NCBI RefSeq assembly: GCF_000020025.1
Contig: NC_010628.1
Span: 2,370,001 to 2,402,000, forward strand
Reading direction: 5' to 3'
Source of the DNA: Nostoc punctiforme PCC 73102
GTDB lineage: Bacteria; Cyanobacteriota; Cyanobacteriia; Cyanobacteriales; Nostocaceae
Length of the DNA stretch: 32,000 nt
Position 1 is the first letter of the stretch. Every line of letters starts with the position of its first letter. The notes beneath the pieces are model-generated. The model was not told the origin of the DNA. It saw nothing but the letters and a program-made list of their open reading frames with translations, and searched no databases. Position numbers and translations under genes: made by a program. Of the stretch, positions 9,987 to 32,000 are shown piece by piece.

Positions 9987-12962
9987 TTACCGTGCATCGC
10001 CAATCAGCACAAATGGCGACCAATAAAAAGGATGACGATGGTCTGCAATTAGCTTCAACTTAGCTTTTTGCAAAGCCTCCCCTTTCGTCATACCCAGCTT
10101 GAGATTCTGATAAAAATCAACCATCAATAGCTGAGTTGCTTCATCATCAACCGCCCACAAACTAGCCATCACAGCTTTAGCACCAGCCCGCTCAAATATA
10201 TAAGCAACTCCTGTAATTCCTGCGCCATTAAAATTAGTATCTACAGCAGTTTGACAAGCGCTGAGAGTAATCAATTGTGTGCCTTGTAAACCTAAAAGAG
10301 CAGCATCAGCAATGTCTAGGGATTTATCAGCAAATAGTAACGTATTAGTTTTTAACTTGACTTTTTTGCAATCTTCAGTTTGAAAACAGCCGTGAGTTGC
10401 TAAATGCAAAAAGGAAAAGCGCAATGCTTGAGATTTAAAGTTTTCCAAGCTAGCTTTTTTATTGATATAAACTTCACTGTCTGGCAGTATTTCTTTAATC
10501 TTTGTGACTTCTAACTCTGCACCTGGAAGATTTTGCGGGTCACTGGTTACTGGATTACCAAATGCTAAAACAGCCTGTGATTTGCGGGATATGGCATTTT
10601 GCGTAGCTAGAGATTGTAAGGAATTATTGGAAATACGAGTGAGATAATTGACAGGATATTTCTCGATTAGAAATTGCTTAGTTTTACTGTCGTAAAGACT
10701 CTCAAAAGGTAAATGACGTAGTTTACCAGTAGCAATAATACTCAGTTGTTTAGGTGATAAAGCCTTAATTTTGTCTTCGATAGGACGAATAAGAGTATTA
10801 TAAAGTTCGCTGCCAGTTTCAAGGTAATCAGAATCACTTTCGTCTTGTACCTGGTTTAAGTAATCGCTAATAAGTTTATTAAACTTAGTGGGTTCAATAG
10901 ATTTTTTAATAACACTCAACTCACCTTTGGTAAAGATAAAAAAGGCGACATTATTAGGCATATCTCTCACATCAGTCAGCAAGACGGGTTGGACTATAAC
11001 TGTTCCTGCGGGAATGAAGGATGTCAGGTTTTTAATATCTGCGGGTGTAGTTTCAAATAGTTCTGCTACTTCAGGAAAGCGGCGAGAGATAGTTTCGGCT
11101 TCTGAGTAAACTTGTGCCTCTAATTGTCGAATTTGTTGGGGTAGGCTTTCGGATTGATCGCTTTGCAGTTGTTGTCGCAGTGCTTCCAATTGTTGATTTT
11201 TTTTACTCCAATCGTTAAGGCTCTGCTGTGCTTCTGGGTTGGCAACTTTGGCATTAATCAGGCGAGTATAATCAGCAAGGTCGGCTGTGGTGAATAGGTT
11301 AACCCATTCAAAGGCTTGAGCATATTTCTTTTGATTAATCAGGACATCGACTAAAGCAGTAGAAATTGCACTTCCACCGTTTTGCTGTAAAAACTTTTGG
11401 CGATTTTCTCGTTGCAAACCTCGGCGCATTTCTAAGCTGATTTTGAGAGATTGCTCTAAATTAGTAATGGCTTGGGTTGGTCGATTTGTACTTTGGAAGA
11501 GTACACCAATATTACCTAATGTGATAGCTTCACCTGCGCGATCGCCCACTGCATGAATTAGGGGGAGAGCTTGGTTGTAAAAATCGAGTGCTTTTTGCTT
11601 TTCTCCTAAAGCAAAGTAGACTCGACCGATGTTATTGAGAGTGGTGGCTTCACCTGCGCGATCGCCCACAGCCTGCCAAAGAGGCAGAGCTTGGTTGTAA
11701 AATTCGAGTGCTTTTTGCTTTTCTCCTAAATCGTCGTAGACTCCACCGATGTTATTGAGAGTGGTGGCTTCACCTGCGCGATCGCCCACAGCCTGCCAAA
11801 GAGGCAGAGCTTGGTTGTAAAATTCGAGTGCTTTTTGCTTTTCTCCTAAATCCGAGTAGACTCCACCGATATTATTGAGTGTGCGAGCCTCACCAGTGCG
11901 ATCGCCCACAGCCCGAATTAGGGGCAAAGCTTGGTTGTAAAATTCGAGGGCTTTTTGCTTTTCTCCTAAATCGTCGTAGACTCGACCGATGTTATTGAGA
12001 GTGGTGGCTTCACCTGCGCGATCGCCCACAGCCCGAAATAGGGGCAAAGCTTGGTTGTAAAAATCGAGGGCTTTTTGCTTTTCTCCTAAAGCGGAGTAGA
12101 CTAGACCGATGTTATTGAGAGTGGTGGCTTCACCTGCGCGATCGCCCACAGCCCGAAATAGGGGCAAAGCTTGGTTGTAAAAATCGAGGGCTTTTTGCTT
12201 TTCTCCTAAAGCGGAGTAGACTCGACCGATGTTATTGAGAGTGGTGGCTTCACCTGCGCGATCGCCCACAGCCCGAAATAGGGGCAAAGCTTGGTTGTAA
12301 AAATCGAGGGCTTTTTGCTTTTCTCCTAAAGCGGAGTAGACTCGACCGATGTTATTGAGAGTGGTGGCTTCACCTGCGCGATCGCCCACAGCCCGAAATA
12401 GGGGCAAAGCTTGGTTGTAAAAATCGAGGGCTTTTTGCTTTTCTCCTAAAGCGGAGTAGACTCGACCGATGTTATTGAGAGTGGTGGCTTCACCTGCGCG
12501 ATCGCCCACTGCACGATATAGGGGCAAAGCTTGGTTGTAAAAATCGAGGGCTTTTTGCTTTTCTCCTAAATCGTCGTAGACTGCACCGATGTTATTGAGA
12601 GTGGTGGCTTCACCTGCGCGATCGCCCACTGCACGATATAGGGGCAAAGCTTGGTTGTAAAAATCGAGGGCTTTTTGCTTTTCTCCTAAATCGTCGTAGT
12701 TAAACCCAAGCCAAAGCAGTGTGGTTGCTTCCAGTTTTTGGTCTTTAAGTTCCTGTGCCATAGTTGGAACTGGCTGTAATATTTGTATTGCCTTTTGGTG
12801 TTCCTGTTGCTGTGTCAGTTTTATTCCTTGCTCTAGCAGTTTTTCTGCTTCTTGCGATCGCGAGTTTTGAGTTTGTCCCCAAGTGGGTTGAGCCATCAGC
12901 ATTACTGTTATAGGCGTTAGATAAACGCCCACAGCAAAAAGACTGGTGAAAATTTTTTTCAT
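9987..12962 (-). CDS. Secreted TPR-repeat / CHAT-domain (caspase-like) protease
   Basis: 991-aa ORF. It has an N-terminal signal-like hydrophobic segment and ten 40-aa TPR-type units (LGEKQKALDFYNQALPL.RAVGDRAGEATTLNNIG.VY..). The C-terminal CHAT domain carries His and Cys dyad contexts (FLHLATHG and LITLSACQTA). Confidence 0.9.
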   Translation of the reverse strand: MKKIFTSLFAVGVYLTPITVMLMAQPTWGQTQNSRSQEAEKLLEQGIKLTQQQEHQKAIQILQPVPTMAQELKDQKLEATTLLWLGFNYDDLGEKQKALDFYNQALPLYRAVGDRAGEATTLNNIGAVYDDLGEKQKALDFYNQALPLYRAVGDRAGEATTLNNIGRVYSALGEKQKALDFYNQALPLFRAVGDRAGEATTLNNIGRVYSALGEKQKALDFYNQALPLFRAVGDRAGEATTLNNIGRVYSALGEKQKALDFYNQALPLFRAVGDRAGEATTLNNIGLVYSALGEKQKALDFYNQALPLFRAVGDRAGEATTLNNIGRVYDDLGEKQKALEFYNQALPLIRAVGDRTGEARTLNNIGGVYSDLGEKQKALEFYNQALPLWQAVGDRAGEATTLNNIGGVYDDLGEKQKALEFYNQALPLWQAVGDRAGEATTLNNIGRVYFALGEKQKALDFYNQALPLIHAVGDRAGEAITLGNIGVLFQSTNRPTQAITNLEQSLKISLEMRRGLQRENRQKFLQQNGGSAISTALVDVLINQKKYAQAFEWVNLFTTADLADYTRLINAKVANPEAQQSLNDWSKKNQQLEALRQQLQSDQSESLPQQIRQLEAQVYSEAETISRRFPEVAELFETTPADIKNLTSFIPAGTVIVQPVLLTDVRDMPNNVAFFIFTKGELSVIKKSIEPTKFNKLISDYLNQVQDESDSDYLETGSELYNTLIRPIEDKIKALSPKQLSIIATGKLRHLPFESLYDSKTKQFLIEKYPVNYLTRISNNSLQSLATQNAISRKSQAVLAFGNPVTSDPQNLPGAELEVTKIKEILPDSEVYINKKASLENFKSQALRFSFLHLATHGCFQTEDCKKVKLKTNTLLFADKSLDIADAALLGLQGTQLITLSACQTAVDTNFNGAGITGVAYIFERAGAKAVMASLWAVDDEATQLLMVDFYQNLKLGMTKGEALQKAKLKLIADHRHPFYWSPFVLIGDAR
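11521..12720. repeat. Ten tandem 120-bp units inside the TPR-CHAT gene
   Basis: The period is exactly 120 bp. Units 12121-12240, 12241-12360 and 12361-12480 are identical base for base, and 12001-12120 differs from them by 1 nt. Every unit contains GCGATCGC. Confidence 0.95.
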
Positions 12963-18916: not shown

Positions 18917-19036
18917 ATCGTTAATTGATCTGCCTCTAGCTATTTTTGCTGTACTGGATACTTCAAGGGAAGGCAAAGCTTGAAGCATGAGAAAATTAGA
19001 GCACATACTCTATCTATTAATCTAGGAAATGTGGCA

Positions 19037-19291
19037 ATGCCCGAAAAACCAACAACAACTATTCACAGCCAACTACTGGAAATATTGTCCCAATTGCCCT
19101 TATCTTTTCAAGAAGAAGTATTAAATTTTGCTATTTCTCTCCAGAAAAAAAAACTAACTCAGCATTGGGATGCTATTTCTGATGTCGAGGCTGCTGCATT
19201 GAAAACTGAGTTTGCTGATGAAGATTTAGATTTTGCAGAATCCGTTTTAACTGATTATTTCTCCCAGCTTCAGCAAGAGGACGCAGTTTAA
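19037..19291 (+). CDS. Putative antitoxin of the MazF pair (DUF2281-like N-terminus)
   Basis: 84 aa from the ATG at 19037, with AGGA 9 nt upstream; the ORF track's TTG start is at 18980. The segment LSQLPLSFQEEVLNFAISLQKKK resembles DUF2281-type antitoxins. Its stop overlaps the toxin start (TAATG). Confidence 0.6.
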   Translation: MPEKPTTTIHSQLLEILSQLPLSFQEEVLNFAISLQKKKLTQHWDAISDVEAAALKTEFADEDLDFAESVLTDYFSQLQQEDAV

Positions 19292-19650
19292 TGCGAGGAG
19301 ATGTTTATTTAGCTGATTTAAATCCGAGCCGAGGTTCAGAGCAAGCAGGTATCCGACCAGTTATTATTGTTCAGCGAGATCGACTAGCTCAGTTTACAAC
19401 AACATCTGTAGTAGTTCCTTTAACCACTAATCTGCGACGCGCTATTATACCAGGGACAATTGTTATACCTTCAGGTGAAGGCGGTTTAACGCAAGATTCA
19501 GTGGTACTTTCTTATCAAATAGTTGTTATCGATAGGCAGCGATTAATCCGAAAATTAGGAACTCTTTCTCCTAATTATTTATTAATGCTAAAAGTGGCAT
19601 TAGATTACACTTTACAACTAAATAATTCTGACGAAGAAAATGCCGATTGA
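19291..19650 (+). CDS. mazF: Type II toxin-antitoxin system PemK/MazF family endoribonuclease toxin
   Basis: 119-aa ORF with RGDVYLADLNPSRGSEQAGIRPVIIVQ...VVPLTT...SVVLSYQIVVIDRQRL, a classic MazF/PemK pattern. Confidence 0.9.
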   Translation: MRGDVYLADLNPSRGSEQAGIRPVIIVQRDRLAQFTTTSVVVPLTTNLRRAIIPGTIVIPSGEGGLTQDSVVLSYQIVVIDRQRLIRKLGTLSPNYLLMLKVALDYTLQLNNSDEENAD

Positions 19651-24789: not shown

Positions 24790-25698
24790 TTAATAGGTTA
24801 GTTGTAAACTACTTAGAAGATATTCTCCCGCAAGAATGGGAGGATAGATAGGTGATTGCCTCTGGGAGCAACTTTCTAGACAAGCAATTTCTGTATCATC
24901 ATTAGGATGACAGAAAAAAGCAATAGAATACCTTGACTTCTTTACTCTCTCATCATTGGGAATCATAACCCGATGCTTAGTCGAGCAAAATATATGATTC
25001 GTCCATCTCTGCATTAAATCACCAGTATTTACTAGTACCATCCCAGGAATCAATGGTGCGGCAATCCACTCTTTCCTAGTTGTCTGCACTTCCAAACCTC
25101 CTACTGCATGTTGGAACAGTAAAGTAAGACTGCCATAATCGGAATGTTCACCAGCACGTACTTGTCCAGGTTTGGGCGATGTCTGTAGTGGCGGGTAATG
25201 TAATAGTCGCAAGGTATGATTTTTTTGATTATGTCTAGTCGTAAAAAAATATTCAGGCAATTCTAATGCCAAAGCAAAAGCTTGCAGTACAGTATTAGCT
25301 AATTCTGTACAAGCATTGTAAAAAGTAGATATGACAGGATTGTTTGTAAGTAAGATAGGAGATGAAAAATTATTAATTATTATGTCATTTTTTATATTAA
25401 AAGCCTCTTTTAAATCTCCTGGTTGATTAGGATTGAGGTGTTCTCTTTCCAAGCCAACATAACCTGTATTAATAAATTCATTGTTCCAGGCTAACTGTTC
25501 CTTGACTGCCAATGGTGAGTCAAAAAAAGATTTACTTGCAGAAAAAACTTGCTCTAATAAATCCGGTGATATGCCGGAATTTTGGATGTACATAAATCCA
25601 ATTTCATGACAGGCTTGATAAATATTTTTAACTACATTTTGTCGCCTTACTTGGTTGCTAATTTGGAACTGTGATAAATCAATTATTGGAATTGACAT
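24790..25698 (-). CDS. 2-oxoglutarate/Fe(II)-dependent oxygenase (isopenicillin-N-synthase family)
   Basis: It begins MSIPIIDLS from the ATG at 25698; the ORF track's GTG start is at 25713. The HxD...H facial triad is seen as GEHSDYGSLTLLFQ and STKHRV, followed by RYSIAFF. Confidence 0.85.
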   Translation of the reverse strand: MSIPIIDLSQFQISNQVRRQNVVKNIYQACHEIGFMYIQNSGISPDLLEQVFSASKSFFDSPLAVKEQLAWNNEFINTGYVGLEREHLNPNQPGDLKEAFNIKNDIIINNFSSPILLTNNPVISTFYNACTELANTVLQAFALALELPEYFFTTRHNQKNHTLRLLHYPPLQTSPKPGQVRAGEHSDYGSLTLLFQHAVGGLEVQTTRKEWIAAPLIPGMVLVNTGDLMQRWTNHIFCSTKHRVMIPNDERVKKSRYSIAFFCHPNDDTEIACLESCSQRQSPIYPPILAGEYLLSSLQLTY

Positions 25699-25850
25699 AA
25701 AATTACACCGCACTTTGCCAGTAAATTAAGTACACATTTAATATGATAAATTTTCTGGGCTGGGGCAAGATGCACACCCTATACCTTAGATCGATCGGGT
25801 GTGGCTAGGTAATGCAATTGCCTCGACATTCGCAGAGGTTTTATCGGCAA

Positions 25851-27216: not shown

Positions 27217-28038
27217 GGTAGTACCCTCTGAAAATCTTACGATTGGTGAACAACCAAATTTCAGTGCGCTCACTAATCCTCGTATTTCTAATTTTAGACA
27301 ATAGCAATATTATCTAGAATAAGGATATTTGGATAATTACACGCACTAAAACGTAATTTTAGCCCAAAGCTTGTTGTATTTACTGAGTGGACAATAATTA
27401 AACTGACACATTAACTAAAAAACAGTAAACCAAAAAGTTTTTCCTCAAAGAGCGATCGCTTCGCTAGATGGAGGCTAGTCCATCTTCTCCCCAATCTATT
27501 CTCTCTCTTATTGCCGAAAGCCTTTCTGATGTGGGCTATTGGGGTAGCTAGCTATTTCCAATCGCAGGCGTGCCAGGACAATATTTCATACTAAGTCGCC
27601 CCTTGGGTTTAAGAAAGAAAGGGCTTTTTCGTTATATTTATCAAGTTAAGCAACAAATAAAACCTAACAGTTTGAAATTTTCACTAATACCTTCAAAGTT
27701 ACCTTAAATCAATTAGCTGTGGCAGTGCAACAAAGGCGTTTCAGGCGCTTCGAAGGAGGCTTACGTACAGTTCAAGGAATTTACTAAACAATAATAGACG
27801 GCGTTGCAGCACTTCTAGAACTTACTCTTGGTACGTACTCAAGGTTTTTTTTCAAAAAAATACTAGTATTATTTTTACTAGCGTCCTGCGGTTATTACTG
27901 CCTTGTTTCAGTGTTGATGAGCGATTAAAAAAATTAAATTATACAATTAACGTCCGGAAAACAAAGGTGAAGTTAGGAAAAATAGTGAACATATGATTGT
28001 AACTTTCTTTGATTGAGTTCATATAAAAGGCTTTCACA

Positions 28039-29028
28039 ATGGTTACTACTCCTGTATATTATTTGCAAATTCTGGACAATCCGAATATTGAAATTTCTCA
28101 AGATGAGTTGCGATCGCTTTTAGGAGAAATAGAAGTACAACTGCATCGTAGCCGAGTTTATCGACGGGTTTTAGGGATTGTGCAGAAGTTAATAGGTGAA
28201 CAAACAGATCAGGCTCAAGATTTATTAAAAGCCGTAGGTAGAGAAGCGATCGGGTTAGCATTTCAACAATTTGCCCAACAATCTCAAAAAGTTGAAACAG
28301 TTACAGATACCAAGCAAGCCACAGAAATAGTCAATTCTTCACCAGAGATACAGCAGGAGCATTGCGCTCTCCAGGAGGAACCCTCTAAAAATACAGCAGA
28401 AAATTCGCTGTGGAAAAAACCACTACAATTGCTAAATCATCAGAGAATTTCTCAAACTGAACTTGTAGAACAAGCTGAACTTGCAGCCCAACAACGCATG
28501 GTGTGCCTACGTCAAATCGGGCAACAACTCCAAAAAACCCGTCAGTCCAAAGGGCTTTCTTTGGATCACATCCAGCTTTCTACTCATATCCGAACGGAGC
28601 TGATAGAGGCATTAGAAAACGGCAACTGGAAAGAATTATCAGATGACATTTTTGTACGTGGATTTATACGACGTTATGGAGATGCTTTAGGACTTAATGG
28701 TGTTGCTTTAGCTGCCTCTTTGCCATTCCTAGCAGCTATACCAGCAACTCAGCCCTTTTCGGATCAATCTAAAAAAGGAATGGGATTGGAAATTCGTCCG
28801 ACGCATTTATATGTAGGTTATACAGCTCTTCTTGCTGGTGCAATGGGAGGATTAGCTCTGATGTCCCAGCAACAAGCAAATACCAATATATCAATTGAGC
28901 AAGATAACTCTTCTTCTGTTTTACAATCGTTAAAACAACAATCCCCTACTGTTAAACCAGGGATTAAATCTACTAACACTGGTGTAGCTGTCGGATCTGA
29001 TATTTCCCCACCAGAAGGATTATATTAA
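28039..29028 (+). CDS. RodZ-like helix-turn-helix (HTH_25) membrane protein with a long N-terminal extension
   Basis: 329-aa ORF. The central segment LRQIGQQLQKTRQSKGLSLDHIQLSTHIRTELIEALENGNW...FVRGFIRRYGDALGL is the RodZ-type HTH. It is followed by a single TM helix (LYVGYTALLAGAMGGLALM). Confidence 0.7.
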   Translation: MVTTPVYYLQILDNPNIEISQDELRSLLGEIEVQLHRSRVYRRVLGIVQKLIGEQTDQAQDLLKAVGREAIGLAFQQFAQQSQKVETVTDTKQATEIVNSSPEIQQEHCALQEEPSKNTAENSLWKKPLQLLNHQRISQTELVEQAELAAQQRMVCLRQIGQQLQKTRQSKGLSLDHIQLSTHIRTELIEALENGNWKELSDDIFVRGFIRRYGDALGLNGVALAASLPFLAAIPATQPFSDQSKKGMGLEIRPTHLYVGYTALLAGAMGGLALMSQQQANTNISIEQDNSSSVLQSLKQQSPTVKPGIKSTNTGVAVGSDISPPEGLY

Positions 29029-29606
29029 CGAACTGCACCTGCCTGATAACGGCTCTTCTGTGGGCTACACCGCCAATTTTAACCACATAGGACAGGTGCT
29101 GGATTTGACGTTATTTTCAGCTTACTACCTGTCCCTTTCCTTATCCCGAATTCAGGTTATTTTTAGAAATTAATATTCCAGACAATTTTAATGCTCGATC
29201 GCTCCCAAAGTTTTCAAGATTGCTTTTTGCGCTTGTGTGACTCCTGTAATTCCAGTGATATTCATGCCTTCGTAAGAGCGATCGTGAAAACTGAAAACTG
29301 AATTACCTTCATTATCCTCTTAGAATCTATTCAACATCACCCCAAAGATAGATAGTTAGTTTACTAGTATCTAACTTTAGGGGAATTAAATCTTTAAAAA
29401 AAATATTTATAAGTGAAGTATAAATGGTGTTACATGTCTGTGTCTTTCGTCCATACGTGAATAACATTTATGTATTAATACAGTTCAAAAGGCTTGCTTC
29501 CTCTAACCCCTTTTCTCACAAGTAAGTACTGCAAGGATTTCCTAGCAACGAAAATTACTAACTGAACTGTATCAACTTATGTAGGAAAAAGGTGAGGTAA
29601 ATAATT

Positions 29607-29807
29607 ATGTTAGATCAAGCCATCAAGTCTGATTTGCTTGTGGAATTATCTCCTGAAGAACAGGAGCTTCTAGCAGCTGGTGGAGGAGATTATGGAGGTT
29701 ACGGTGGCTATAAGCACCATTACGGTGGCTATAAGCGCCATTACGGCTATGGTCACTACCATCGTCCTTGGGGTCACTACAAGCATCATGGGTACCATCA
29801 CTGGTAG
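29607..29807 (+). CDS. Small precursor-like peptide: double-glycine-type leader plus a 40-aa Gly/Tyr/His-rich core
   Basis: 66-aa ORF with the SD GGTGAGG 9 nt upstream of the ATG and tandem stops TAG TAA. The leader is MLDQAIKSDLLVELSPEEQELLAAGG. The core is GDYGGYGGYKHHYGGYKRHYGYGHYHRPWGHYKHHGYHHW. Confidence 0.6.
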   Translation: MLDQAIKSDLLVELSPEEQELLAAGGGDYGGYGGYKHHYGGYKRHYGYGHYHRPWGHYKHHGYHHW

Positions 29808-29885
29808 TAAGATAGCGAAGCGCAGAGATTGAATAGTCTCATAGTTGAATGTGACTAAGGAGTTATGTAAAAATAAATTGAACAA

Positions 29886-31117
29886 TTAACTGACTACTTT
29901 GGGTTTGATAATATAGTTCCACTCACCATGAAAAGAATTTCGTTCGATTGCGATAGTATCAAGCTCTTGGTCTGTAACCTTGATTCCCGTTTTGTAGAGA
30001 TTTGGATCTAATCTAGCTTCAACTTCTAATCCTTGTGTGGTGGTAGTATTGCGAATTAGATTAATCACAACTTGCAAGCTAGTTAATGGTCTGCCTCGCC
30101 AGTTTTGGGTAATGTGACAAAACAAGCGATGCTCAATCTTATTCCATTTACTTGTGCCTGGAGGAAAATGACACACATGAATAGTTTTACCAGTATCAGT
30201 TGCTAATTCTTGTAACTTCAATTTCCACAATCGTGAGCGATAACTATTGCTACCACCGCAATCAGCCGTAATCATTATATGCTCACTGCTGGGATAAACT
30301 TGTTTACCCATTGAGTACCACCAATGACGAATAGACTCGACTGCAAACTCTGCGGTATCGTGGTCAATGCCAACATTTACCCATCCTTGATTTGAGGTTA
30401 AGTCATAAATTCCGTAGGGAATTGCCTTGCCCAACTTGGGGTCAACAAAATCATGCATTTTCACCTCAATTGGCTGTTCCTTTTCACACCACTCGGTTCC
30501 AGAATTTTTAAAATCTCCAATTAATTCTTTTTTTTTGTATCAACTGAAATTACGGGTTCGTTCTGGGATTGAAAGTGCAAGACTTGGTTGGAAATATGTA
30601 AAAACTGATCATCTCTATCTGGATGAGATGAGCCATCACGGGTTTTACGATTTGATTGTAAGCTGTAGCCAAGCGATTCAAGTAAGTTATAAACACTTTT
30701 AGGACTAGTCCTATGTCCCCCAATGTTTAATGCCGCAGCCAGTTTCACAACACTTTTAGAAGTCCATTTTAGAGGAGATTCTGGGTCTCCCAGTGTCACT
30801 GGTTCAATCAGCGATTCTAAATCTGATAGCAGCATTGCGTCTTTTTCTTCAAGTAGTTTACGTCCAGCACCTGACGAACGAATTCGATTACTATCATCAT
30901 TCGAGGTTTTTTCCCCCGAAGCGTCTAACAATAACCGTATCCCAGCATGGATTGTAGTCCGGGATAGTCCAGTTGCGAGCGCAACCTGACTCACGCCTCC
31001 CCAGCCCAGGCTTCGGGCTTCAATTGCTGCCCAAATACGCCGTGTTTTCTCATTCAAATAAGGCGATAACGAATCGTACTTGTCTTGAATGCTTTCTACT
31101 ACCTGCTTATCAGACAT
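29886..31117 (-). pseudogene. ISAzo13-family DDE transposase split into two frames at an A9G run (frameshift mutation or programmed -1 slippage)
   Basis: ORF 30521..31117 ends ...ISVDTKKKN*. The -1 frame continues ELIGDFKNSGTEW...KMHDFVDP into ORF 29886..30464, with no stop between. The DDE contexts are SVDTKKK, ITADCGGSN and KWNKIEHRLF. Confidence 0.75.
30527..30536 (-). other. A AAA AAG-type slippery run (A9G) at the junction of the two transposase frames
   Basis: The plus strand reads c-ttttttttt at 30527-30536. In the zero frame the codons are aca aaa aaa aag aat taa. Confidence 0.7.
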
Positions 31118-31564
31118 ATAAGCCTTTAATTCGGTTACATTCTGATCATCTTACCATTCAGCAAATTGTTCAAGTTATTTTTACATGATGCCTAAGAAAA
31201 GGCAGCTATGCTGGAGGGAACGATAGTTGCATAGCTTGAGAAGCTTATATAATAAGGGTTCCAAAGTACAGCATAGCTGCCCTCTGCCTCCTGCCTCATC
31301 ATCCCAACAAACACCATTTTTTAGTGCCATTCGCTACTTGCCCGTCGTGCGGTAGCCGCCCTCTTTCTGCATTCGTTCGACTGCAAGAGCATCAGCAAGC
31401 GGAGTGATGAACGCATCAAATTATTTGATTTTAACTGGAAAGCTTGTTCCGCCTTCGTTAAAAAACAGCGATACGTTTTTATTCTGATTCACAAAATTTT
31501 TAGCGATCGCCATGCTTATTTGCCGACAATCAAGTATATCAGGAAGAAAACATACTAATCGTCT

Positions 31565-31660
31565 TGATAACCTCGATCGGCTAACAGTAAAATCTGCGCT
31601 TTTTTTAAAACACGAGCAGAATTTTTACCTGGAGAATTTCTAAATATCCATTCGTATACC
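31565..31660 (-). pseudogene. Short fragment of an IS630-type transposase N-terminal HTH region
   Basis: The minus-strand translation is VYEWIFRNSPGKNSARVLKKAQILLLADRGYQDD*. It resembles the (G)K(H/N)SARV..RA.ILLLADEG segment of IS630-family transposases. No continuation is present. Confidence 0.4.
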
Positions 31661-31756
31661 TCAATACCTTAGCCAAAATAAGAGGATGAGGAGAGAGGGC
31701 CGATGTAGTAGAGTTATTGTCTCTCACAACGACAACTCAAAAACCACAATCAGCCC

Positions 31757-31817
31757 ATGTCAGATATCTTATCACTGCTACAATGCTTGCTACCGCAGAT
31801 AAACGCTACGACCAGGG
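31757..31817 (+). pseudogene. N-terminal stub of another transposase (MSDILSLLQCLLPQINATT...), apparently cut by the next IS
   Basis: The ATG is at 31757. The sequence resembles the starts of cyanobacterial IS4/IS701-like transposases as I remember them. The reading frame collapses where the ISAs1-type sequence begins. Confidence 0.3.
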
Positions 31818-32000
31818 CTATTTCATTCTAAAAAGCTGCTTGAGTGTGTCTAGTCCAAAAGAACATAAACGTTGAGCTTGTGCCATATTTTCAAACATAT
31901 TACTGCGATATAAATTAAGTGAAAAATTGCGAGCAAGCACAAAAATTTGAGGAAGAGGAGTAGTGCGAATTCTAGATTTATCTTCGCCTTGAGTAACGTC
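31818..32000 (-). CDS. ISAs1-family transposase, C-terminal part (gene continues beyond the window)
   Basis: The minus frame is open from the window edge: DVTQGEDKSRIRTTPLPQIFVLARNFSLNLYRSNMFENMAQAQRLCSFGLDTLKQLFRMK*. This matches the ISAs1 C-terminal pattern DV.F.ED.SR.R...N...LRN.ALNL. Confidence 0.6.
   Translation of the reverse strand, partial: DVTQGEDKSRIRTTPLPQIFVLARNFSLNLYRSNMFENMAQAQRLCSFGLDTLKQLFRMK

Follow-up and report, generated by a model that had tools for sequence, protein, structure and literature searches.

A stretch of 32,000 nt of the Nostoc punctiforme PCC 73102 genome (NC_010628.1, positions 2,370,001 to 2,402,000 of the forward strand) was analysed around a small open reading frame (ORF) that encodes a putative exported peptide with a double-glycine-type leader. 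This whole stretch is referred to as the window, and positions are counted from its first letter. The precursor peptide gene lies at 29607..29807 on the + strand, starts with ATG and encodes 66 aa identical to WP_041565305.1, annotated as 'hypothetical protein'. A Shine-Dalgarno (SD) sequence, GGTGAGG (29591..29597, +), is located 9 nt 5′ of the ATG, and the SD region (..AAGTGAGG..) and the start codon align column for column with those of homologous genes. The 3′ end of the gene reads TGG TAG TAA, thus closing with a double stop. The encoded product comprises an acidic leader of pI 4.05 (29607..29684, +; residues 1-25 or 1-26), followed by a core of 39-41 aa (29685..29804, +) that, judged from its composition and computed charge, is Gly/Tyr/His-rich, cationic and terminated by Trp. 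All these elements (the 66-aa ORF, the SD sequence and the TAG TAA stops) had been given in a preliminary description of the locus and could be read directly from the sequence, and its composition for the 40-aa tail was exact (G11 Y10 H10 K3 R2 W2 D1 P1).

The precursor has a computed mass of 7.7 kDa. For the core, the computed pI is 9.5, the charge is about +4.6 at pH 7 and +8.9 at pH 6, the grand average of hydropathy is about -1.9, and Cys, Ser and Thr are absent. Depending on the cut site, the predicted monoisotopic masses of the unmodified core are 4984.216, 4927.195 or 4870.173 Da, and the predicted tryptic peptides include HHYGGYK, HYGYGHYHRPWGHYK and HHGYHHW. Moreover, the core contains a 21-nt tandem duplication encoding YGGYKHH / YGGYKRH, which was detected by Tandem Repeats Finder at 29699..29746 on the + strand (period 21, 2.3 copies, 96%) and which had been correctly noticed before as two copies at 29700-29720 and 29721-29741 with one base different. 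The accompanying proposal of five heptads was not upheld. The lag-7 identity in the core was significant (14 matches vs. 6.3 expected, p=0.001) because of this single 7-codon duplication, since the signal was reduced to p=0.09 once one duplicate copy was removed and to p=0.23 for the C-terminal 21-aa tail alone. A Pfam scan of the peptide with a model set lacking PF28158 gave no match, a word-indexed homology search with the single peptide returned only the peptide itself, and an Rfam scan of 28900-30000 found nothing.

Leader homology and the peptide family

A phmmer search against 1.8 billion representative proteins recovered five small homologs of 53-65 aa (E 2e-6 to 1e-4), with a near-identical leader and Gly/Tyr/Arg/Pro/His cores. 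The profile built from the window peptide and these five sequences then retrieved 88 proteins, the named ones being almost all from Nostocales, which share the leader consensus MSxQxIxSDLLVELSTEEQQLLSGG and have mutually unalignable cores. Thus, the BLASTP/HMM leader search proposed in the preliminary description, run in this phmmer and profile form, led to a Nostocales family with the same leader. In addition, a hidden Markov model (HMM) of the leader constructed from 84 homologs, with the window peptide left out, assigned it 44.0 bits (E 1.3e-12), while the cluster-linked short members of the family (<100 aa) scored about 31-65 bits with the same model. At the DNA level, an identity of 75-82% was found between the window gene and the homologous genes over a region that starts ~30 nt 5′ of the ATG and spans the leader. 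In Nostoc relatives carrying the slot peptides described below, the match extended ~35 nt into the core (..YGGYGGY..). By this identity between nucleotide sequences the window gene is related to its homologs by descent rather than by convergence. The leader HMM score and the phmmer hits show that the ORF is more than a product of chance.

Double-glycine leaders are usually ~15-30 aa long, end in GG (or GA, GS or AG), carry acidic residues and have hydrophobic residues at about positions -4, -12 and -15. The window leader presents this pattern for a cut after G25, with L22 at -4, L14 at -12, L11 at -15 and E17/E18 at -9/-8. The family register places ..LLSGG at residues 21-25, where the window peptide reads LLAAGGG, and therefore a cut after G25, G26 or G27 is possible. 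Consequently, from the 26/40 split into leader and core that had been put forward, the leader was retained but not the exact boundary.

Among the curated models, NF038167 of NCBIfam matched only residues 4-27 of the peptide, with 18.2 bits (E 2e-3; cutoff 32), or 20.5 bits when the leader was used alone. This model gave 75.8 bits on its defining ~106-aa proteins and 22-26 bits on the short peptides. The score of the window peptide was below the cutoff and the core domain was not matched past profile position 23, so that by these profile comparisons the peptide shares the CTB-type leader but is not filed as a member of NF038167 (PF28158 in Pfam). The NHLP (TIGR03793) and Nif11 (TIGR03798) models, which are part of NCBIfam, gave no match, as scanning NCBIfam with E limits of 1 and 10 returned NF038167 only, and the earlier option of a Nif11/NHLP-style precursor found no support.

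Exporter clusters of the homologs

No C39, ATP-binding cassette (ABC), HlyD or tailoring gene was found anywhere in the 32-kb window, in agreement with the preliminary description, which had reported no such gene nearby. The description of the gene as an orphan applies to its genomic position, but not to its relatives, which form a large family. The three closest homologs were looked up, each being the last gene of a conserved cluster. In these clusters, ychF, a 65-aa ORF and yidD (opposite strand) are followed by a 234-aa gene, a CTB gene (106-123 aa), a HlyD-type gene, a C39-ABC gene (722 aa), a ~105-aa gene and one to six leader peptides. Furthermore, in 29 out of 36 loci from species-representative genomes, orthologous HlyD and C39-ABC proteins (63-99% identical) were encoded 1-5 kb upstream of the matched peptide. 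These loci were obtained by scanning genome contigs with the pattern [VEQ][ED]LS[TA]EEQ[QE], which excludes the LSPEEQ of the window peptide, hence the position of N. punctiforme outside the fetched set. The ABC protein has the domains Peptidase_C39, ABC_membrane and ABC_tran, and shows the motifs ..EEDCGAACL.. and ..HHWVVL.., which are presumably those of an active C39 peptidase. Three homolog clusters were annotated with Pfam and showed HlyD, C39-ABC, leader peptides and housekeeping neighbours only, with no tailoring enzyme and no recognised immunity gene. Leader homology and the exporter linkage of the homologs together support the central proposal of the preliminary description, namely a double-glycine precursor of the type that C39-peptidase ABC exporters handle.

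This arrangement corresponds to the 'group III' bacteriocin cluster linked to DUF37/YidD (Wang, Fewer & Sivonen 2011, PMC3140520). For N. punctiforme, that study located such a cluster at CP001037 7,580,633-7,587,112, with two precursors, a 4.3-kb gap, proteins of 105 aa and 80 aa, and a terminal 61-aa peptide (pI 12, charge +6). The gap has the right size for HlyD and the ABC gene, and the layout matches that of the fetched clusters. The window peptide is not listed in the study, supplements included, its search having covered only the 20 kb around each cluster (PMC3140520).

In the remaining 7 of the 36 loci, no exporter was found within the fetched flanks, and five of these loci belong to one cross-genus subfamily. 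Its core, RR(G)xRRCPRRxFVPRCG(P/A)YF..G-rich..FDDxF, was observed in Nodularia, Trichormus, a Nostocales LEGE strain and uncultured genomes (L038, L040, L041, L046 and L050, with the match at ~10001, or at 3734 in L041), and the flanks, of up to 10 kb, were devoid of an exporter in all five. The existence of loci with no exporter in the fetched flanks, including a subfamily shared across genera, makes the use of an exporter in trans plausible.

Two further observations concern the exporter genes. The ~105-aa gene that follows the ABC gene (L012:8423-8740 and orthologs) has a leader-like start (..FRYLSEKEQESLTAGQ..) in which Q is preceded by GG or AG depending on the genome, and this variation suggests that AG may be tolerated at the cleavage motif of the group III exporter. 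Nostoc sp. UIC 10630 (L056:1-3891) has a different C39-ABC/HlyD-type pair with three ORFs of 39-41 aa in between, which lies 6-10 kb upstream of a RodZ-like gene related to that of the window and adjoins genes for a fatty-acyl-AMP ligase, a thioesterase and a phosphopantetheinyl transferase.

Composition class of the core

A core class was defined by composition and not by sequence, with a cutoff of at least 85% of Gly, aromatic (Y, W, F), basic (H, R, K) and Pro residues. A total of 36 out of 196 distinct cores belonged to this class, all of them ending in W, C, Y or F, with examples such as YGRPYY repeats, GWGR repeats, GHHRHG, YGHGGYGHGK and HGYHGHHG. The window core, with 97% of class residues and a final W behind a leader scoring 44 bits, fits this class. 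Exactly one Gly/aromatic/basic peptide was present in 21 of the 31 exporter-linked clusters, and in 19 it was encoded by the last leader-bearing gene, which occupies a terminal slot at a distance of 1.4-4.6 kb downstream from the C39-ABC gene. The window copy, being dispersed, does not have this position. None of six representative sequence strings of the family was contained in any paper of one searchable library, so these slot peptides appear to be undescribed as a class.

Upstream module

A stretch at 29344..29490 (+) was shared with the CTB-leader peptide genes (68-85% identity in 13 homolog loci), where the matching sequence ends 4-94 nt upstream of the leader-peptide genes. This module is ~130 nt long, and most leader-peptide genes in the examined clusters carry their own copy of it. 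In the window it contains a -10-like TATAAG at 29408-29413, and it probably comprises a promoter and the start of the 5′ untranslated region.

The homologous modules (loci L011-L049; e.g. L014:8989-9039 and L024:6727-6777) showed a TTATAA(A/T) box, followed after ~8 nt by a hairpin of the form (A)TAGGT(G)-loop-(C)ACCTA(T), which ends ~22-26 nt 5′ of the ATG and has compensatory and G-U variants. When this named structure was counted in 30 sequences, 86.6% of the cells paired vs. 22-50% with a slid partner, and 11 double changes were found, a number reached by none of 500 shuffles. RNAalifold gave no consensus structure for the upstream hairpin. The element could be a 5′-terminal stabilising stem-loop or an operator.

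Orthologs and core evolution

Orthologs of the gene were found at the same position in two metagenome contigs, L054 and L055, 572 nt after the gene for a RodZ-like protein that is 97% identical to the one of the window (578 nt in the window). The L054 ortholog is an intact ORF of 63 aa (MLDQVIKSDLLVELSPEEQQLLAAGGGYYGGYGGYKHYYGGYKHYYGYGHYYRPWGHYNRRWY) that differs close to its end by a 12-nt indel in frame, and that of L055 is cut at codon 52 by the end of the contig. Between the window and L054, codons 1-58 showed seven non-synonymous and no synonymous codon changes, for a divergence of 3.3% in the upstream 578 nt and of 1.8% in the RodZ-like gene. The leader changes A5V and E20Q fall at positions that are variable in the family. 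Moreover, L054 and L055 differed at 6 out of 2428 aligned bases, five of which lay within 43 nt of the core, all being His/Tyr or Arg/His changes. The probability of finding at least five out of six in the 156-nt ORF segment under equal mutability was about 6e-6, or ~1e-3 if a repeat conversion is counted once. Both copies of the 21-nt repeat are identical in L054, which points to conversion between the repeats.

A stable leader joined to a fast core fits diversifying selection or repeat instability, a pattern that in sequence comparisons of this kind would by itself be no proof of function. The preliminary description had named a reading frame not conserved in relatives as one finding that would tell against it; the frame was kept in L054 and L055, with the indel in frame. 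The substitutions were all non-synonymous.

Genomic surroundings

The peptide gene lies in a strain-specific segment whose left edge is a dispersed repeat fragment (29085..29162, no strand assigned) with 92-99% matches on Nostoc plasmids, one of them under an annotated IS982 transposase. The homology with Nostoc sp. CALU 546 and UIC 10890, of 94% at the DNA level across the RodZ-like gene, ends at 29084. On the right, an ISAzo13-family insertion sequence (IS) occupies 29865..31186 (-), with inverted repeats at both ends (29865-29887 and 31164-31186) and a transposase split in two ORFs (29886-30464 and 30521-31117), both matching PF07592 and NF033519. It is a neighbour and not a functional part of the peptide gene, and its start, 57 nt past the stop, had been placed correctly. 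The two transposase ORFs cover positions 2-178 and 201-387 of NF033519, indicating either a frameshifted or inactive copy or programmed frameshifting. The region beyond (31187-32000) lacks a long ORF and matches repeats associated with transposases, so that its earlier designation as IS debris was reasonable; it includes a dispersed repeat of ~150 nt at 31662-31812 (86-98% identical to many Nostoc plasmids) and, at 31812-32000, a fragment that shares 84% identity with a transposase gene of the ISAs1 family, with no ORF intact. With an IS982-linked repeat on the left and the ISAzo13 element and repeats on the right, the cassette 29163-29864 thus has mobile-element sequence on either side. A displacement of the original partners of the gene by the IS is unlikely, because the partner cluster occupies a conserved site of its own by ychF/yidD.

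The RodZ-like HTH_25 gene (27778-29084) had 94% DNA identity with its counterparts in L052 and L053, and its neighbours differed completely on both sides in L052, L053 and L056, so the region is rearrangement-prone. Logan contigs of the same strain, from RNA or DNA runs, all ended at 29884/5 with variable upstream starts. Another Logan contig of this strain (L006, SRR14512087) matched the window through the IS to 31196 and continued with a DUF1517 gene (L006:1743-2966), which reflects either a jump of the assembly through a further IS copy or a rearrangement truly present in that culture; since L006 diverges from the window after 31196, the DUF1517 gene was rejected as the gene beyond the IS. 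Elsewhere in the window, a gene for a PemK/MazF-type toxin (19291-19650, +) directly adjoins, on its upstream side, a 103-aa ORF that is likely its antitoxin (pair 18980-19650), and a 991-aa TPR-CHAT protein is encoded at 9987-12962 (-), both unrelated to the peptide.

Proposed mechanism and alternative explanations

The explanation favoured here, with a probability of about 0.6, is that the ORF is a genuine precursor gene whose leader is cut in trans by the group III C39-ABC exporter, with the release of an unmodified cationic peptide. It draws on the gene itself, the leader homology, the exporter linkage of the homologs, the conserved orthologs, the hypervariable core and the absence of tailoring genes. 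The copy would have arisen when the terminal-slot peptide gene of a cluster was duplicated along with the module upstream of it, and it would be transcribed from its own copy of that module. The resulting 7.7-kDa precursor would be recognised through its acidic leader by the C39 domain of the HlyD-partnered group III exporter encoded elsewhere (~7.58 Mb), and cleavage would take place within the Gly run during HlyD-assisted export. A disordered, very hydrophilic peptide of 39-41 aa (about 4.9 kDa) would then be released outside the cell, where it may act by its bulk composition (Tyr/His/Gly/basic) rather than by a fixed sequence, candidate actions being adhesion to the cell surface or matrix, the binding of metal and effects on the envelopes of other cells. 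The conserved composition, the cluster slot and the lack of a recognised immunity gene in three clusters argue for such a bulk physicochemical function. Expression, recognition in trans, the cleavage position, export and the extracellular role are predictions.

Several findings weigh against this explanation. A lineage-specific insertion of about 85-100 nt (29491..29573, +), which has no second copy within the window or among the fetched loci, separates the module from the ribosome-binding site; it is present in L054 and absent from 14 out of 14 homologous genes. The hairpin of the homologous modules is missing in the window and its orthologs, and a simple scan for sigma-70 promoters and terminators found nothing on the + strand. 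The leader departs from the family at Pro16 (usually Thr or Ala) and at AAGGG (usually SGG), with an ambiguous cut site. Comparison with L054 does not point to purifying selection on the sequence of the core. In three genomes with a RodZ-like protein 93-95% identical, no small gene was called at the matching position, and in the two of them compared at the DNA level the homology ends at window position 29084. The presence of the exporter at ~7.58 Mb in N. punctiforme is reported in a single source, the table of Wang et al. 2011. Lastly, literature searches with the family sequences and the accession WP_041565305 retrieved no transcript, protein or cleavage data for the peptide, and the main text of one N. 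punctiforme exoproteome paper made no mention of such peptides.

Part of these findings would equally be expected from a stranded, decaying duplicate, moved off its cluster by IS-mediated rearrangement, weakly or not expressed or unrecognised by the exporter, and drifting neutrally. The mobile-element sequence on both sides, the ~100-nt insertion between the module and the SD sequence with loss of the hairpin, the unusual leader, the non-synonymous nature of all ortholog substitutions and the absence of the gene from the next-closest genomes are in line with decay. However, the ORF has stayed intact in three lineages at about 3% flank divergence, its sole indel being in frame, and no conserved leader position is altered, both leader changes being at family-variable sites. 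Moreover, the core changed faster between L054 and L055 than by neutral drift of the flanks, while its composition and aromatic C-terminus, as well as the SD sequence and the ATG, were kept. Decay was considered the main alternative, albeit an unlikely one.

A much less probable alternative is that of a peptide made by the ribosome and modified after translation (RiPP), whose aromatic core would be cross-linked or otherwise modified by a cytochrome P450, a radical S-adenosylmethionine (radical-SAM) enzyme or a 2-oxoglutarate (2OG) oxygenase before or after export. Its richness in Tyr, His and Trp makes the core chemically amenable to cross-linking, and a 2OG-Fe(II) oxygenase gene lies at 24790-25713, about 4 kb upstream. 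This gene was rejected as the tailoring enzyme, as three genes intervene and the linkage is not conserved: the flanks differ in three relatives without the peptide, so the RodZ-like gene is not consistently accompanied by it. With no tailoring gene in the window or in the three annotated homolog clusters, and no NHLP or Nif11 match, the cross-linking by P450 or radical-SAM enzymes raised in the preliminary description found no support. Finally, an intracellular small protein with an unprocessed GG, or a chance ORF of the kind that low-complexity DNA yields here in other frames (29670-29885, -; 29680-29832, +), is highly improbable, given that the leader, SD sequence and ATG are homologous to about 100 genes beside a peptidase-exporter and that the reading frame is conserved in the orthologs.

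A wider proposal is advanced tentatively and with clearly lower confidence than the precursor reading itself. The clusters might keep a dedicated slot for a peptide of free sequence, conserved composition and an aromatic or Cys end, whose genes could be copied elsewhere as self-contained cassettes, each with module, SD sequence, leader and core, that use the exporter in trans, the N. punctiforme copy having been mobilised and being in the course of diversification. Regardless of this proposal, a defined subclass is offered of short, composition-conserved Gly/aromatic/basic peptides, predicted to be unmodified and found in roughly two-thirds of the Nostocales clusters studied. As N. punctiforme is genetically tractable and has both a cluster copy and a stray copy, it would allow trans-export, the tolerance of the leader (AAGGG, Pro16) and the action of the peptide to be tested. 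For annotation, homology restricted to the leader reveals small ORFs that score below the cutoffs of curated families.

Comparison with known systems

The window gene belongs to a kind that is already known, the double-glycine precursors encoded in the C39-ABC clusters of cyanobacteria, which were catalogued in 2011, and is an unlisted, dispersed member of it. Its leader is homologous to those of the group III cluster peptides (PMC3140520), but the gene lies outside the cluster as an extra copy. With the CTB family (NF038167 'cyan_ocin_like'; PF28158 'CTB', the latter name taken from precomputed annotations) it shares the N-terminal leader at profile positions 1-23. The CTB proteins proper have ~106 aa, are encoded upstream of HlyD and contain the core ADFELSGSNF..GPxGS..NTAAQDxLGLG, to which the window core is unrelated.

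Cyanobacterial double-glycine peptides are abundant and almost none has an assigned role, the sole characterised case being EbfG/PteB, which concerns the biofilm matrix and not killing. In Synechococcus elongatus PCC 7942, EbfG1-4 are small GG-motif proteins encoded beside the C39-ABC protein PteB and HlyD, and they are secreted as biofilm matrix components (PMC4997328). The Anabaena group III ABC protein Alr5147 is 54% identical to PteB, and a biofilm role for the Nostocales peptides has been put forward as a proposal only (PMC12267927). Because EbfG/PteB makes matrix components and a group III ABC protein is this close to PteB, association through Tyr/His/Arg contacts with the cell surface, the sheath or the matrix was tentatively ranked as the most probable extracellular role, followed by an antimicrobial and then a metal-binding one. 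The likeness of EbfG to the window system is found at the exporter level, and the EbfG cores are not of the Gly/Tyr/His low-complexity type as far as reported.

Class II microcins and bacteriocins that leave the cell by peptidase-containing ABC transporters likewise carry a double-glycine leader that is removed in the course of export, and their mature peptides are unmodified and often rich in Gly. In contrast, the window core has no hydrophobic or amphipathic segment, and the three annotated clusters of its homologs showed no recognised immunity gene. The modified RiPPs (lanthipeptides, cyanobactins or P450/radical-SAM products) differ in having a tailoring gene by the precursor, which neither the window nor the annotated homolog clusters contain. 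As for eukaryotic peptides, the shepherins, the nematode GGY-rich neuropeptide-like proteins and the squid-beak GHGxY proteins bear a resemblance in composition only, with no homology, and the family member at L049 (YGHGGYGHGKYGHG..) has a repeat like the squid-beak GHG-Y one, again a likeness of composition. If the proposal of a dedicated slot were true, these peptides would be a bacterial counterpart of the eukaryotic Gly/Tyr/His-rich adhesive, coacervating or antimicrobial peptides.

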